Assembly: GCF_058153355.1 (NCBI RefSeq)
Contig: NZ_CM177019.1
Reading direction: 5' to 3' (one strand)
Length of the DNA stretch: 64,000 nt
Below, in pieces: positions 7,102 through 47,098 of the stretch. Below the pieces are notes generated by a model, which worked only from the letters and a program-made list of their open reading frames with translations, was not told the DNA's origin and ran no database searches. Position 1 is the stretch's first letter. Each line of letters opens with the position of its first letter. The position numbers and the translations under genes are program-made.

Positions 7102-7104
7102 GCC

Positions 7105-7250
7105 GGTGCCGGATGCGGCGTAAACGCCTTATCCGGCTTTTCAGGCCGCAACGCCTGATGGCGCTTCGCTTATCAGGCCTACAAAACCATCGTAATACGT
7201 TGATATTGATTCATTTGTAGGCCGGATAAGGCGCAGCCGCCATCCGGCAA
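7105..7250. repeat. REP palindromic units between phnK and phnL
   Basis: GCCGGATGCGGCGTAAACGCCTTATCCGGC, GCCTGATGGCGCTTCGCTTATCAGGCCTAC and TAGGCCGGATAAGGCGCAGCCGCCATCCGGC in the 167-bp phnK-phnL gap. Confidence 0.85.
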
Positions 7251-7268
7251 AAACACGAAGAGGCCAAA

Positions 7269-19053: not shown

Positions 19054-21201
19054 ATGAAAAAAGTCGTCACGGTTTGCCCCTATTGCGCATCAGGTTGCAA
19101 AATCAACCTGGTCGTCGATAACGGCAAAATCGTCCGGGCGGAGGCAGCGCAGGGCAAAACCAACCAGGGTACCCTGTGTCTGAAGGGGTATTATGGCTGG
19201 GATTTCATTAACGATACCCAGATCCTGACCCCGCGCCTGAAAACCCCCATGATTCGTCGCCAGCGTGGCGGCAAACTCGAACCTGTTTCCTGGGATGAGG
19301 CACTGAATTACGTTGCCGAGCGCCTGAGCGCCATCAAAGAGAAGTACGGTCCGGATGCCATCCAGACGACCGGCTCCTCGCGTGGTACGGGTAACGAAAC
19401 CAACTATGTAATGCAAAAATTTGCGCGCGCCGTTATTGGTACCAATAACGTTGACTGCTGCGCTCGCGTCTGACACGGCCCATCGGTTGCAGGTCTGCAC
19501 CAATCGGTCGGTAATGGCGCAATGAGCAATGCTATTAACGAAATTGATAATACCGATTTAGTGTTCGTTTTCGGGTACAACCCGGCGGATTCCCACCCTA
19601 TCGTGGCGAATCACGTAATTAACGCTAAACGTAACGGGGCGAAAATTATCGTCTGCGATCCGCGCAAAATTGAAACCGCGCGCATTGCTGACATGCACAT
19701 TGCACTGAAAAACGGCTCGAATATCGCGCTGTTGAATGCGATGGGCCATGTCATTATTGAAGAAAATCTGTACGACAAAGCGTTCGTCGCTTCCCGTACA
19801 GAAGGCTTTGAAGAGTATCGTAAAATCGTTGAAGGCTACACGCCGGAGTCGGTTGAAGATATCACCGGCGTCAGCGCCAGTGAGATTCGTCAGGCGGCGC
19901 GGATGTATGCCCAGGCGAAAAGCGCCGCCATCCTGTGGGGCATGGGTGTAACCCAGTTCTACCAGGGCGTGGAAACCGTGCGTTCTCTGACCAGCCTCGC
20001 GATGCTGACTGGTAACCTCGGTAAGCCGCATGCGGGTGTAAACCCGGTTCGTGGTCAAAACAACGTGCAGGGGGCCTGCGATATGGGCGCACTGCCAGAT
20101 ACTTACCCTGGCTACCAGTATGTGAAAGATCCGGCTAACCGCGAGAAATTCGCCAAAGCCTGGGGTGTAGAGAGTCTGCCTGCTCATACCGGTTATCGCA
20201 TCAGCGAGCTGCCGCACCGCGCAGCGCATGGTGAAGTGCGTGCCGCGTACATTATGGGCGAAGATCCGCTACAAACTGACGCGGAGCTGTCGGCAGTACG
20301 TAAAGCCTTTGAAGATCTGGAACTGGTCATCGTTCAGGACATCTTTATGACCAAAACCGCGTCGGCGGCGGATGTCATTTTACCGTCAACGTCGTGGGGC
20401 GAGCATGAAGGCGTGTTTACTGCGGCTGACCGTGGCTTCCAGCGTTTCTTCAAAGCAGTTGAACCGAAATGGGATCTGAAAACGGACTGGCAGATTATCA
20501 GTGAAATCGCCACCCGTATGGGTTATCCGATGCACTACAACAACACCCAGGAGATCTGGGATGAGTTGCGTCATCTGTGCCCGGATTTCTACGGTGCGAC
20601 TTACGAGAAAATGGGCGAACTGGGCTTCATTCAGTGGCCTTGTCGCGATACTTCAGATGCCGATCAGGGGACTTCTTATCTGTTTAAAGAGAAGTTTGAT
20701 ACTCCGAACGGTCTGGCGCAGTTCTTCACCTGCGACTGGGTAGCGCCAATCGACAAACTCACCGACGAGTATCCGATGGTACTGTCAACGGTGCGTGAAG
20801 TCGGTCACTACTCTTGCCGTTCGATGACCGGTAACTGTGCGGCACTGGCGGCGCTGGCTGATGAACCTGGCTACGCACAAATCAATACCGAAGACGCCAA
20901 ACGTCTGGGTATTGAAGATGAGGCATTGGTTTGGGTGCACTCGCGTAAAGGCAAAATTATCACCCGTGCGCAGGTCAGCGATCGTCCGAACAAAGGGGCG
21001 ATTTACATGACCTACCAGTGGTGGATTGGTGCCTGTAACGAGCTGGTTACCGAAAACTTAAGCCCGATTACGAAAACGCCGGAATACAAATACTGCGCCG
21101 TGCGCGTCGAGCCGATCGCCGATCAGCGCGCCGCCGAGCAGTACGTGATTGACGAGTACAACAAGTTGAAAACTCGCCTGCGCGAAGCGGCATTGGCGTA
21201 A
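19054..21201 (+). CDS. fdhF: Formate dehydrogenase H (selenocysteine-containing, molybdopterin) FdhF; in-frame UGA at 19471-19473 decoded as Sec
   Basis: Track ORFs 19054-19473 and 19522-21201 are in the same frame, separated only by a TGA; merged length is 715 aa; N-terminal Cys cluster CPYCASGC; the UGA sits in CCARV-U-HGPS and is followed by a hairpin. Confidence 0.92.
19474..19515 (+). promoter_or_regulatory. SECIS stem-loop directing selenocysteine insertion at the fdhF UGA
   Basis: Sequence immediately 3' of the TGA (CACGGCCCATCGGTTGCAGGTCTGCACCAATCGGTCGG…) can fold into the stem-loop expected for a bacterial SECIS. Confidence 0.7.
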
Positions 21202-21294: not shown

Positions 21295-21984
21295 ATGAAA
21301 AAAATTATCGCATTGATGTTGTTTTTGACATTCTTTGCCCATGCGAACGGCTCCGAGCCTGGCAGTCAGTATCTCAAGGCTGCAGAGGCTGGAGACCGAC
21401 GCGCACAATATTTTCTTGCCGACAGCTGGTTTAGCTCCGGCGATTTGAGCAAAGCCGAATATTGGGCACAGAAAGCCGCCGACAGCGGTGATGCTGATGC
21501 CTGCGCGCTGTTGGCGCAGATCAAAATCACCAATCCGGTCAGTCTGGACTATCCACAAGCAAAAGTTCTTGCAGAGAAAGCGGCGCAAGCGGGCAGTAAA
21601 GAAGGTGAAGTGACGCTGGCGCATATTCTGGTGAATACTCAAGCGGGTAAACCGGATTATCCAAAGGCGATTTCGCTGTTAGAAAACGCCTCGGAAGATC
21701 TGGAGAACGACTCCGCCGTCGATGCCCAAATGCTGCTTGGTTTGATTTACGCCAACGGCGTGGGCATTAAGGCCGACGATGACAAGGCAACCTGGTATTT
21801 CAAACGCAGCTCTGCGATTTCACGAACCGGTTATTCCGAGTACTGGGCGGGAATGATGTTCTTAAATGGTGAAGAAGGTTTTATCGAGAAGAACAAACAG
21901 AAGGCGCTGCACTGGCTGAACCTGAGCTGTATGGAAGGGTTTGATACCGGGTGTGAAGAGTTTGAAAAATTAACTAACGGTTAA
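21295..21984 (+). CDS. yjcO: Sel1-repeat (TPR-like) periplasmic protein YjcO
   Basis: 229-aa ORF with signal peptide and repeated Sel1-like A-x-Y/W-x-x-K-A-A-x-x-G motifs. Confidence 0.85.
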   Translation: MKKIIALMLFLTFFAHANGSEPGSQYLKAAEAGDRRAQYFLADSWFSSGDLSKAEYWAQKAADSGDADACALLAQIKITNPVSLDYPQAKVLAEKAAQAGSKEGEVTLAHILVNTQAGKPDYPKAISLLENASEDLENDSAVDAQMLLGLIYANGVGIKADDDKATWYFKRSSAISRTGYSEYWAGMMFLNGEEGFIEKNKQKALHWLNLSCMEGFDTGCEEFEKLTNG

Positions 21985-21986
21985 TG

Positions 21987-22250
21987 TAGGCCTGATAAGA
22001 CGCGGTAAGCGTCGCATCAGATATTAATGTCGGATGCGGCGTAAACGCCTTATCCGACCTACAAAATCACCCTAAATCAAGCTATTGCGCAGTCTGGCGT
22101 AGGCCTGATAAGACGCGGCAAGCGTCGCATCAGGCATTGATGTCGGATGCGGCGTAAACGCCTTATCCGACCTACAAAATCACGCTAAATCAGGCTATTG
22201 CGCAGTCTGGCGTAGGCCTGATAAGACGCGGCAAGCGTCGCATCAGGCAT
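21987..22250. repeat. BIME/REP array: five REP palindromic units in alternating orientation, about 113-bp period
   Basis: Repeated units TAGGCCTGATAAGACGCGGCAAGCGTCGCATCAGGC and GTCGGATGCGGCGTAAACGCCTTATCCGACCTAC, with near-identical 113-bp repeats starting near 21987, 22100 and 22213. Confidence 0.85.
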
Positions 22251-22288
22251 CCACACATTGCCGGGTGTATGTCCCCGGCAATCCTCAA

Positions 22289-32678: not shown

Positions 32679-32795
32679 TGCCGGATGCGATCCGGGCAAC
32701 AAGTCGGAAACGATTTGTAGGCCTGATAAGACGCGACAGCGTCGCATCAGGCATTGATTGCCGGATGCGGCGTATAACGCCTTATCCGGCCTACA
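32679..32795. repeat. REP palindromic units between acs and yjcH
   Basis: TAGGCCTGATAAGACGCGACAGCGTCGCATCAGGC and GCCGGATGCGGCGTATAACGCCTTATCCGGCCTAC. Confidence 0.8.
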
Positions 32796-40044: not shown

Positions 40045-40186
40045 ATCAACACCAACCGGAACCTCCACCACGTGCTCGAATGAGGTGTGTTGACGTCGGG
40101 GGAAACCCTCCTGTGTACCAGCGGGATAGAGAGAAAGACAAAGACCGGAAAACAAACTAAAGCGCCCTTGTGGCGCTTTAGTTTTG
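40045..40186 (+). ncRNA. ryjA: Small RNA RyjA (SraL), converging on the soxR 3' end
   Basis: Known K-12 sRNA location between ghxP and soxR on the strand opposite soxR; a TACAAT -10-like element near 40033-40038; ends at a hairpin TAAAGCGCC-CTTGT-GGCGCTTTA plus GTTTTGTT that overlaps the soxR stop. 5' end is approximate. Confidence 0.45.
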
Positions 40187-40642
40187 TTCATCTTCCAGCA
40201 AGCGTGCGCCTGTGCCTTCTTCTCCTAAGCAGTCGCCCGGGTTACGCAATGGGCAATCACTGCGCGAAAGGCAGCCGCAACCAATACATCCGTCCAGTTC
40301 GTCACGCAGTGCCACTAAGGTATGAATACGCCGATCCAACTCTTCTCGCCATTGGGACGAAAGCTGTTTCCACTCTTTCGCACTTAATGTATGCCCTTCG
40401 GGCAACACGCCAAACGCTTCACGAATGGTCGCCAGCGGAATGCCAATACGCTGAGCAATTTTGATGATTGCGACATATCGCAACACATCACGCTTATATC
40501 GCCGCTGATTACCGCTGTTACGAATACTGGTAATCAACCCTTTGCTTTCATAGAAATGCAGCGCCGATACCGCCACACCGCTGCGTTTTGCCACTTCGCC
40601 GGGGGTTAGCAGCGCTTTAATGCGGGGTAATTTCTTTTCCAT
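40178..40642 (-). CDS. soxR: Redox-sensing MerR-family regulator SoxR ([2Fe-2S])
   Basis: 154-aa ORF with C-terminal [12 protein letters not shown] iron-sulfur cluster motif. Confidence 0.95.
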
Positions 40643-40653
40643 AAATCGCTTTA

Positions 40654-40671
40654 CCTCAAGTTAACTTGAGG
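40654..40671. promoter_or_regulatory. SoxR operator in the soxS promoter
   Basis: Perfect 18-bp palindrome CCTCAAGTTAACTTGAGG in the 85-bp divergent soxR-soxS intergenic region. Confidence 0.85.
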
Positions 40672-40727
40672 AATTATACTCCCCAACAGATGAATTAACG
40701 AACTGAACACTGAAAAGAGGCAGATTT

Positions 40728-41051
40728 ATGTCCCATCAGAAAATTATTCAGGATCTTATCGCATGGATTGACGAGCATATTGACCAGCCGCTTAACATTG
40801 ATGTCGTCGCAAAAAAATCAGGCTATTCAAAGTGGTACTTACAGCGGATGTTCCGCACGGTGACGCATCAGACACTTGGTGATTACATTCGCCAACGCCG
40901 CCTGTTACTGGCCGCCGTTGAGTTGCGCACCACCGAGCGTCCGATTTTTGATATCGCAATGGACCTTGGTTATGTCTCGCAGCAGACTTTTTCCCGCGTT
41001 TTCCGTCGGCAGTTTGATCGCACTCCCAGCGATTATCGCCACCGCCTGTAG
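40728..41051 (+). CDS. soxS: AraC/XylS-family superoxide-response activator SoxS
   Basis: 107-aa ORF divergent from soxR; recognised SoxS sequence. Confidence 0.95.
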   Translation: MSHQKIIQDLIAWIDEHIDQPLNIDVVAKKSGYSKWYLQRMFRTVTHQTLGDYIRQRRLLLAAVELRTTERPIFDIAMDLGYVSQQTFSRVFRRQFDRTPSDYRHRL

Positions 41052-41053
41052 TT

Positions 41054-42640
41054 TTATTGCCCGCGCGTTAACTCCTGCGCGGGTGATTGCTCCATCCATT
41101 GCATGAACACCTGCGGTGGCATCGCCTTAGCAAAGAACCATCCCTGGCAATAGCGCACGCCGCGTTTACGCAACCAGTTAACCTGATCCTCAGTTTCTAC
41201 CCCTTCTGCAATCGTTTTCAGCCCCAGGCTGTGCGCCAGCTCGATGATGTGTTCCGCAATCAAATGACTGGTTTTATGGGTGGTCAGCGTCTCAACAAAC
41301 GATTTATCGATTTTCAAAATATCGACATTCAATGATTTAAGGTTATGCAAGTTAGAGTAGCCAATACCAAAATCATCAATTGCCACTTCGTAACCAGCCT
41401 GGCGGAAAGCCAGAATAATTGGTGTCATTTTGTCGACATCAAGAAATGCATGTTCAGTCACTTCAAATTTAATTTGCTGTGGACGCACCGCGTATTGCTC
41501 TGTTTTCTGATTGGTTCGCGCTATCAACCGGGACGTATGAAAATCGGAGGCCGACAGGTTAATAGAAACATAGCGATCGGCATGTGTTGCCAGGTACGCG
41601 CCCAGATCGCGGAAGACATTATCAATAACATAATCAGTTACCTGTCCGATCATCCCCTCCTTTTCTGCCAGCGGAATAAACTCTGCCGGATTCATTACTT
41701 GCCCCTGCTCACCAGGCCAACGTAACAATGCTTCAGCGCCGATACATTTTTCTGTTTTGATATCGATTATTGGCTGGTAATAAAGGCAAAGTTGATGTTT
41801 TTCGAGGGCGCGTTGCAATTTGCGTTTGGGAGACAAATAGTTTTGTCGAATACGTAGCCAGAGTAATAACAGAACAAGACTCCCCAAAATGCCGGCGGGT
41901 AACGCAAAAATAAGATGATTATAAAAATGCGCTATAAGACGTTGATATGAAGTCGCAACAATGGCTGCAATTGGGCGTTTTGTCGAATAAACTGTCGCAT
42001 ATAAATAGCCATTTCTTTGTACGGTTAAATCATTCAAATGAATCAGTGGAGAAAACGTTGCTGCCGAGGCCTCGTTGCTTAACGAGAAAAAGGTTTTCGT
42101 TACCGTATCATACACACCCCATTGCAATGTCGGATCATCAGACATCACTTCACTCCAGAATAGAGGGTTGATGACCGCCACATAATTTCCCCGCTGCATA
42201 TAGGTCATTTTATAGCCAGAGAAAAAAGGCGTATCGCGGTAATAATAGATAGAAACGTTAGGTGCACGCTTATAATCGGCCGGTGCAATCGTATAACCGT
42301 TTACAGGCGCTATCAGCGATGAGCATAAAAAATGGTTATCACGGGCATAGATCAATTCATTAATATAAAGATAGCCACGAATAATATTCAACATTCGCTT
42401 TTGATGGGCCGGAGTGCAAACTTGCCCCTGATAGCGTTCTGCTGCATCGCTCACTAAATCTGCCTGGCGAATGACCAGCTCGGATTTATCCAGCGCCAGC
42501 TGAGCAAAAGTTTGGAGCTGACTATTCACTTCTGATTTTGCCCAAAGGAAAGCAATCCATAGCGACAGAATGATGGGAAAGAGAACTAAAAAGATAATGC
42601 CCGGCAACGCCAGTAATTGGTGTCGTGCATGATGACTCAT
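41054..42640 (-). CDS. pdeC: c-di-GMP phosphodiesterase PdeC (YjcC), membrane-anchored EAL domain
   Basis: Two TM segments flanking a periplasmic region, then an EAL domain ([19 protein letters not shown]); track ORF trimmed by 3 codons to MSHHARHQ…. Confidence 0.85.
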
Positions 42641-47064: not shown

Positions 47065-47098
47065 TCGTTAAGGCCGCTTTCTGAGCGGCCTTTTTCTT

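Follow-up and report, generated by a model that had tools for sequence, protein, structure and literature searches.

[quoted passage not shown] One and the same site makes SoxR both the activator of soxS and the repressor of soxR, and promoters regulated by SoxR typically have a spacer of 19 bp (PMC4411124). [quoted passage not shown]

The window, which is the whole 64-kb stretch of DNA analysed, carries a divergent soxR-soxS pair. It was concluded with high confidence that this is the canonical E. coli soxRS two-stage oxidative-stress switch and that its control DNA is unchanged. As such it is a textbook switch, already known, and the result matters little beyond annotation: the genome has the standard soxRS switch for oxidative-stress and multidrug tolerance, with control DNA untouched. 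Only a rare, independently recurring SoxR allele, R138C, may be of practical interest.

The soxRS locus and its control region

The two genes were assigned as soxR and soxS on the basis of curated equivalog models and of synteny with K-12. The soxR coding sequence (positions 40178 to 40642, minus strand, stop codon included) encodes a MerR-family [2Fe-2S] redox sensor and activator of 154 residues, which scored 246.6 bits against the NCBIfam SoxR equivalog TIGR01950 (cut-off 116.9). The soxS coding sequence (positions 40728 to 41051, plus strand, stop codon included) encodes an AraC/XylS-family regulon activator of 107 residues, which scored 228 bits against the SoxS equivalog NF007584 (cut-off 174). 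Pfam MerR and MerR-DNA-bind domains were found in SoxR and AraC-type helix-turn-helix domains in SoxS. SoxR was about 99% identical to the crystallised E. coli protein (PDB 2ZHG/2ZHH) in a match that spans all 154 residues, and it weakly matched structures and models of CueR, MerR and ZntR. A 1-kb query around soxRS was matched in 5,425 of 5,426 complete E. coli genomes, the annotation always being soxR, soxS and pdeC, and the order of the neighbourhood, pdeC-soxS-soxR-ryjA (RyjA/SraL sRNA)-ghxP, is that of K-12. The entire window was collinear with an ordinary E. coli chromosome from the phn operon to ubiA, at 97.4 to 99.0% identity to the closest complete genome, 2020CK-00188 (NZ_ABACVG020000001.1; loci L124 and L125). 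The genes for SoxR re-reduction, rsxABCDGE and rseC, were absent from the window's gene list and are sited elsewhere on the chromosome.

At the other end of soxR lies the gene for the Hfq-binding sRNA SraL/RyjA (positions 40045 to 40185, plus strand; Rfam RF01408, 153 bits), which is transcribed convergently with soxR and shares 8 nt with the soxR 3' end. A hairpin with a 13-bp stem (positions 40154 to 40184, both strands) includes the stop codon of soxR and resembles a bidirectional terminator common to soxR and this convergent sRNA.

Identity to 2020CK-00188 was uneven along the window: the phn end reached 97.4%, the uvrA-ubiA end 99.0% and the soxRS kilobase 99.8%, while most E. coli genomes were just 95 to 99% identical to the window at soxRS. 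This suggests that the window comes from a sparsely sampled lineage whose history may have been mosaic and recombined. Between gltP and yjcO (positions 21980 to 22260), the window carries tandem REP/BIME-type palindromic units and is about 190 bp, or one extra unit, longer than the closest complete genome. Similar small intergenic indels were observed at about 32689 to 32757 (yjcH/acs) and about 7102 to 7260, and at about 47071 to 47091, between yjbR and uvrA, where about 150 bp are missing from the window.

The open reading frame list leaves a gap of exactly 85 bp between the two divergent genes (positions 40643 to 40727, both strands), as had been stated in the sequence-only reading. That reading had also placed in this gap a perfect 18-bp SoxR operator overlapping the spacer of the soxS promoter, and both statements were borne out to the base. 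The palindrome CCTCAAGTTAACTTGAGG occupies positions 40654 to 40671 on both strands, with its centre between 40662 and 40663. As a loopless dyad of 9+9 bp it reads the same on either strand, and PMC4411124 gives exactly CCTCAAGTTAACTTGAGG as the SoxR box of E. coli. It was the sole match in the 64-kb window even with three mismatches tolerated, against an expectation of 0.03.

The soxS promoter comprises a -35 hexamer, TTTACC (positions 40650 to 40655), a spacer of 19 bp (positions 40656 to 40674), which is over-long as in MerR-type promoters, and a -10 hexamer, TATACT (positions 40675 to 40680), all on the plus strand. The Shine-Dalgarno sequence AGAGG (positions 40716 to 40720, plus strand) lies 7 nt ahead of the soxS ATG. 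Analysis of the element spacing found the dyad overlapping the -35 hexamer by 2 bp, covering 16 bp of the 19-bp spacer and ending three bases short of the -10 hexamer, so that its centre is 7.5 bp from the end of the -35 and 12.5 bp from the start of the -10. The palindrome is thus neither imperfect nor displaced from the soxS -35/-10 spacer. A generic sigma-70 scan of positions 40100 to 41200, restricted to spacers of 16 to 18 bp, found no promoter. This was not deemed to be evidence against the promoter because the soxS spacer of 19 bp falls outside the range that the scan admits; the empty scan is the signature expected of a MerR-type promoter.

On the minus strand, a candidate soxR -10 hexamer, TATAAT (positions 40673 to 40678), stands back-to-back with the soxS -10. 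A weak candidate -35, TCGTTA (positions 40696 to 40701, minus strand), has 3 of 6 matches and a 17-bp spacer, and its TCGT is kept in most of the 12 enterobacterial loci, among the matches listed, that are described below. The exact transcription starts of soxS and soxR are inferred; given the opposite-strand TATAAT, the soxR start would lie at about 40666, inside the operator. This placement agrees with the account in PMC4411124, in which soxR is repressed from the same single site.

Two longer perfect palindromes, of 20 and 24 bp, were found in the window besides CCTCAAGTTAACTTGAGG. The 20-bp palindrome CGTTATTGGTACCAATAACG (positions 19431 to 19450) lies inside fdhF, which starts at 19054, and stops 21 nt short of the in-frame UGA for selenocysteine (codon 140, positions 19471 to 19473). 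It was excluded as the fdhF SECIS hairpin, since the SECIS is downstream of the UGA, and it may be a chance occurrence. The 24-bp palindrome AAAGCCGGATGATCATCCGGCTTT (positions 63438 to 63461), between the convergent ubiA and plsB, is most likely a bidirectional terminator.

SoxR and SoxS proteins and the R138C allele

Alignment with the soxRS region of K-12 MG1655 gave 0 differences in the 85 intergenic bp, 16 in the 465 bp of soxR and 10 in the 324 bp of soxS. All 10 of the latter are silent, and SoxS is 100% identical to that of K-12; its stop codon is TAG here and TAA in K-12. Of the 26 differences in the two genes together, 24 are silent, and SoxR retains 152 of 154 residues, the exceptions being G74R and R138C. 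The helix-turn-helix region (residues 1 to 73) and the cluster motif were identical to both K-12 and 2ZHG. The four cysteines of this motif, C119-IG-C122-G-C124-LSRSD-C130 (CX2CXCX5C; codons at positions 40253 to 40288, minus strand), are all present, as had been proposed, and were invariant in 23 of the 23 homologues that cover the region. The claim that the switch is fully intact held with one reservation: the control DNA, SoxS, the helix-turn-helix and the cluster cysteines are all K-12-like, while SoxR itself carries one common and one rare substitution.

The two substitutions fall at positions that are both variable among orthologues. Codon 74 (positions 40421 to 40423, minus strand) encodes Arg here and Gly in K-12. 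The SoxR protein bearing G74R was found on at least 1000 contigs and the closest genome carries this change too; G74R is a common lineage polymorphism. Together with T38S, it has been reported in both fully susceptible and highly resistant isolates (PMC4317672). A different kind of variation was seen in Shigella sonnei, where a widespread form of SoxR (P0005; 377 contigs) is annotated with 145 residues, 9 fewer than here, and differs at the N terminus (MTLTPGEV...). As annotated, this short form implies an altered soxR 5' end beside the operator in that lineage.

Codon 138 (positions 40229 to 40231, minus strand) reads TGC (Cys) in the window, where K-12 and the closest genome have CGC (Arg); the nucleotide change is at 40231. 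The substituted residue lies eight positions beyond C130. When a 31-mer centred on this codon was searched in the 5,426 complete E. coli genomes, the Arg allele was found in 4,960 and the Cys allele in one. This other R138C genome is that of strain JMF1, from a wildebeest, in which soxR (locus L126, 2963 to 3427) is K-12-like, differing by 1 nt from K-12 and by 15 nt from the window. Since the JMF1 allele sits on a K-12-like background, R138C is deduced to have arisen at least twice. In the same strain, the pdeC gene beside soxRS is split by an IS903B insertion (locus L126, 3839 to 6031). The exact SoxR protein of the window was present on about 2 to 5 contigs, one of which was 100% identical to the window across 6.5 kb.

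Exact-sequence counts for the K-12 SoxR with a single change at this position gave 74 contigs for R138H, 29 for R138C, 4 for R138L, 2 for R138S, 1 for R138P and 0 for R138G, compared with 32 for the known constitutive allele R20C and 5 for G143D, contigs here not being equivalent to independent lineages. Among 23 orthologues, position 138 was occupied by R, K, Q, A, H, E or I, and Cys was not found there in any of them. Few positions in the C-terminal part of SoxR vary as much; G143, by contrast, is nearly invariant. A literature search on soxR R138C or R138 found no relevant mention. An AlphaFold2 model of SoxR had a mean pLDDT of 76 that dropped to about 50 past residue 120, as is to be expected of a chain modelled with neither cluster, dimer partner nor DNA, and it was uninformative on residue 138.

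Conservation of the promoter-operator core and alternative readings

Of 5,420 complete E. coli genomes, 5,380 carried the 85-bp control region at an identity of 99% or more, a cut-off that a single mismatch fails but under which end-trimmed alignments could hide a few terminal differences. For the comparison beyond the species, one genome per prokaryotic species was scanned for both operator half-sites with a free 4-bp centre, and the half-sites are thus invariant by construction in a set of at least 120 loci, which constitutes a sample rather than a census. Among the matches listed, a SoxR homologue lay within 400 bp in 28 of 121 sites, nearly all within 75 bp, and a SoxS homologue was also present at 12 of these 28; all 12 were Enterobacterales with a TTAA centre.

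These 12 enterobacterial soxRS loci, among the matches listed, were from Citrobacter, E. albertii, Enterobacter, Superficieibacter, Rosenbergiella, Pantoea and Klebsiella sp. When they were aligned with the window on the operator, a 32-bp core (positions 40649 to 40680, plus strand) consisting of a C, the -35, the 19-bp spacer and the -10 was invariant in all of them, 14 of its 32 positions being fixed by the search pattern and 18 free. It was the sole long invariant run in the alignment of 13 sequences; the flanks and the soxS leader diverge freely, and the leader varies in length from about 40 to more than 110 nt. SoxR of the 12 loci was only 66 to 97% identical, yet the core was unchanged. 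The comparison thus illustrates a tight constraint on the promoter-operator core, which is constant across genera in which SoxR is only about 66% identical.

The geometry extended to the non-enteric loci in which soxR adjoins the box. In 15 of 15 of these, among the matches listed, TTGACC or TTTACC occurred at the -35 position, pointing away from soxR, and in most of the same 15 a TAnnnT-like hexamer followed 19 bp after the -35. In many Streptomyces genomes these half-sites flank a CATG or CGCG centre, frequently two or three times in one genome and with no soxR close by (loci L012, L017, L022, L026, L053, L089, L092, L095 and others). These sites are presumably direct targets of the SoxR regulon.

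Dyad symmetry by itself was rejected as evidence for an operator. In first-order Markov simulations of the window, loopless perfect palindromes of at least 18 bp appeared in 28 of 100 simulated windows, so that the 18-bp dyad could in principle be a chance inverted repeat or a site for another factor rather than a working SoxR operator. This reading is effectively refuted by the exact match to the published SoxR box, which has no second copy in the window, by its location in the soxR-soxS gap, where the promoter geometry is as expected, and by its invariance in seven other genera, among the matches listed, while the flanks diverge; it is on the match, the location and the invariance that CCTCAAGTTAACTTGAGG was placed above chance. 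The proportion of half-site occurrences adjoining a SoxR gene among the prokaryotic matches listed argues against chance in the same way. The dyad might alternatively work mainly as a nucleic acid structure, for instance by extruding as a cruciform or by forming a hairpin in the 5' leader of soxR, and not as a protein site. Its perfect, loopless 9+9 form would suit such a structure, and a soxR start at about 40666 would put part of it in the leader, where GAGG stands 11 nt ahead of the soxR AUG. A start inside the dyad, however, would leave only one arm and a few bases in the RNA, from which no hairpin is possible, and the non-enteric loci among the matches listed keep the half-sites and leave the central 4 bp free, which is the pattern of a dimer-binding site. 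Together with the existence of a SoxR-DNA co-crystal structure (2ZHG family), this renders a primarily structural role of the dyad extremely improbable.

The remaining alternative accepts the canonical switch and proposes that R138C shifts its set-point, SoxR being partly constitutive, hypersensitive or harder to re-reduce, with raised basal soxS and hence more AcrAB-TolC efflux and tolerance of antibiotics and oxidants. The substitution lies in the same C-terminal region as the constitutive G143D, a second Arg-to-Cys change, R20C, is constitutive as well (PMC13223516), the same C-to-T change occurred independently in JMF1, and the contig counts of R138C and R138H are comparable to those of the constitutive alleles. 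The recurrence, however, is expected from mutation alone because TGC and CAC are the two transition products of CGC, and the contig counts do not represent independent lineages. Position 138 is furthermore highly variable where G143 is nearly invariant, and neither the literature nor the structure model lends the proposal support. A shifted set-point was therefore considered unlikely. Slightly less credit still was given to the more specific proposal of a recurrent change under selection, R138C and perhaps also R138H, that borders the cluster-binding loop and retunes the sensor, either through a fifth nearby thiol or through a lost positive charge affecting the cluster potential or the docking of the Rsx/RseC reductase; it would then be a natural low-level constitutive or hypersensitive allele with separate origins in two or more E. 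coli lineages. Since position 138 varies between species, R138C is probably neutral, and R138C and G74R together would be expected to leave the switch working normally. Changes towards the C terminus of SoxR can keep the regulon switched on and so add to fluoroquinolone and multidrug resistance; nothing in the present data shows that R138C does either.

Proposed working of the switch and comparison with known systems

For the canonical switch, the identity and position of the elements, their identity to K-12 and their conservation were observed directly. SoxR binding, the redox chemistry and the distortion of the DNA are carried over from established knowledge of identical DNA and a 99%-identical protein (PMC4411124, PMC13223516; PDB 2ZHG), and the mechanistic steps draw also on what is generally known of MerR-family activators. 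By this analogy, a SoxR homodimer with a [2Fe-2S] cluster on C119, C122, C124 and C130 of each subunit would sit permanently on the single dyad at 40654 to 40671. The soxS -35 (TTTACC) and -10 (TATACT) hexamers, 19 bp apart, would be too far from each other for efficient formation of the open complex. Oxidation of the clusters by redox-cycling compounds, superoxide or nitric oxide would cause SoxR to distort and shorten the spacer in the MerR-family fashion, allowing RNA polymerase to fire, and the soxS transcript would then yield SoxS and activation of the regulon. The same bound dimer would lie over the region in which transcription starts from the soxR promoter on the opposite strand (TATAAT, 40678 to 40673), and because of this, expression of soxR would be low in both redox states.

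The locus is closest in its features to E. coli K-12 soxRS (b4063/b4062), with which it shares the gene order, the neighbours pdeC, ryjA/sraL and ghxP and all 85 intergenic bp, the operator, -35, 19-bp spacer, -10 and SoxS protein all being identical. It differs from K-12 in the G74R and R138C substitutions of SoxR, in the 26 nucleotide changes of the two genes and in the soxS stop codon (TAG instead of TAA). The promoters of the MerR family (MerR, CueR, ZntR) resemble that of soxS in having a dyad operator within an over-long spacer of 19 to 20 bp, and SoxR has the MerR helix-turn-helix and MerR-DNA-bind domains. The signal for MerR, CueR and ZntR is metal binding, whereas for SoxR it is the one-electron oxidation of the [2Fe-2S] cluster. 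In enteric bacteria, the only known target of SoxR is a second regulator, soxS. In the non-enteric systems (Stenotrophomonas mfsA-soxR, Pseudomonas, Streptomyces), SoxR instead controls effector genes directly, with no SoxS intermediary. These systems share with the present locus the half-sites CCTCAAG/CTTGAGG, the overlap with the -35 (TTGACC) and the 19-bp geometry, and they are also alike in that a divergent soxR is autorepressed from the same site (PMC4411124). They are distinguished from it by the central 4 bp of the operator, which are variable there and TTAA here, and by the -35 hexamer, which is TTGACC there and TTTACC here.
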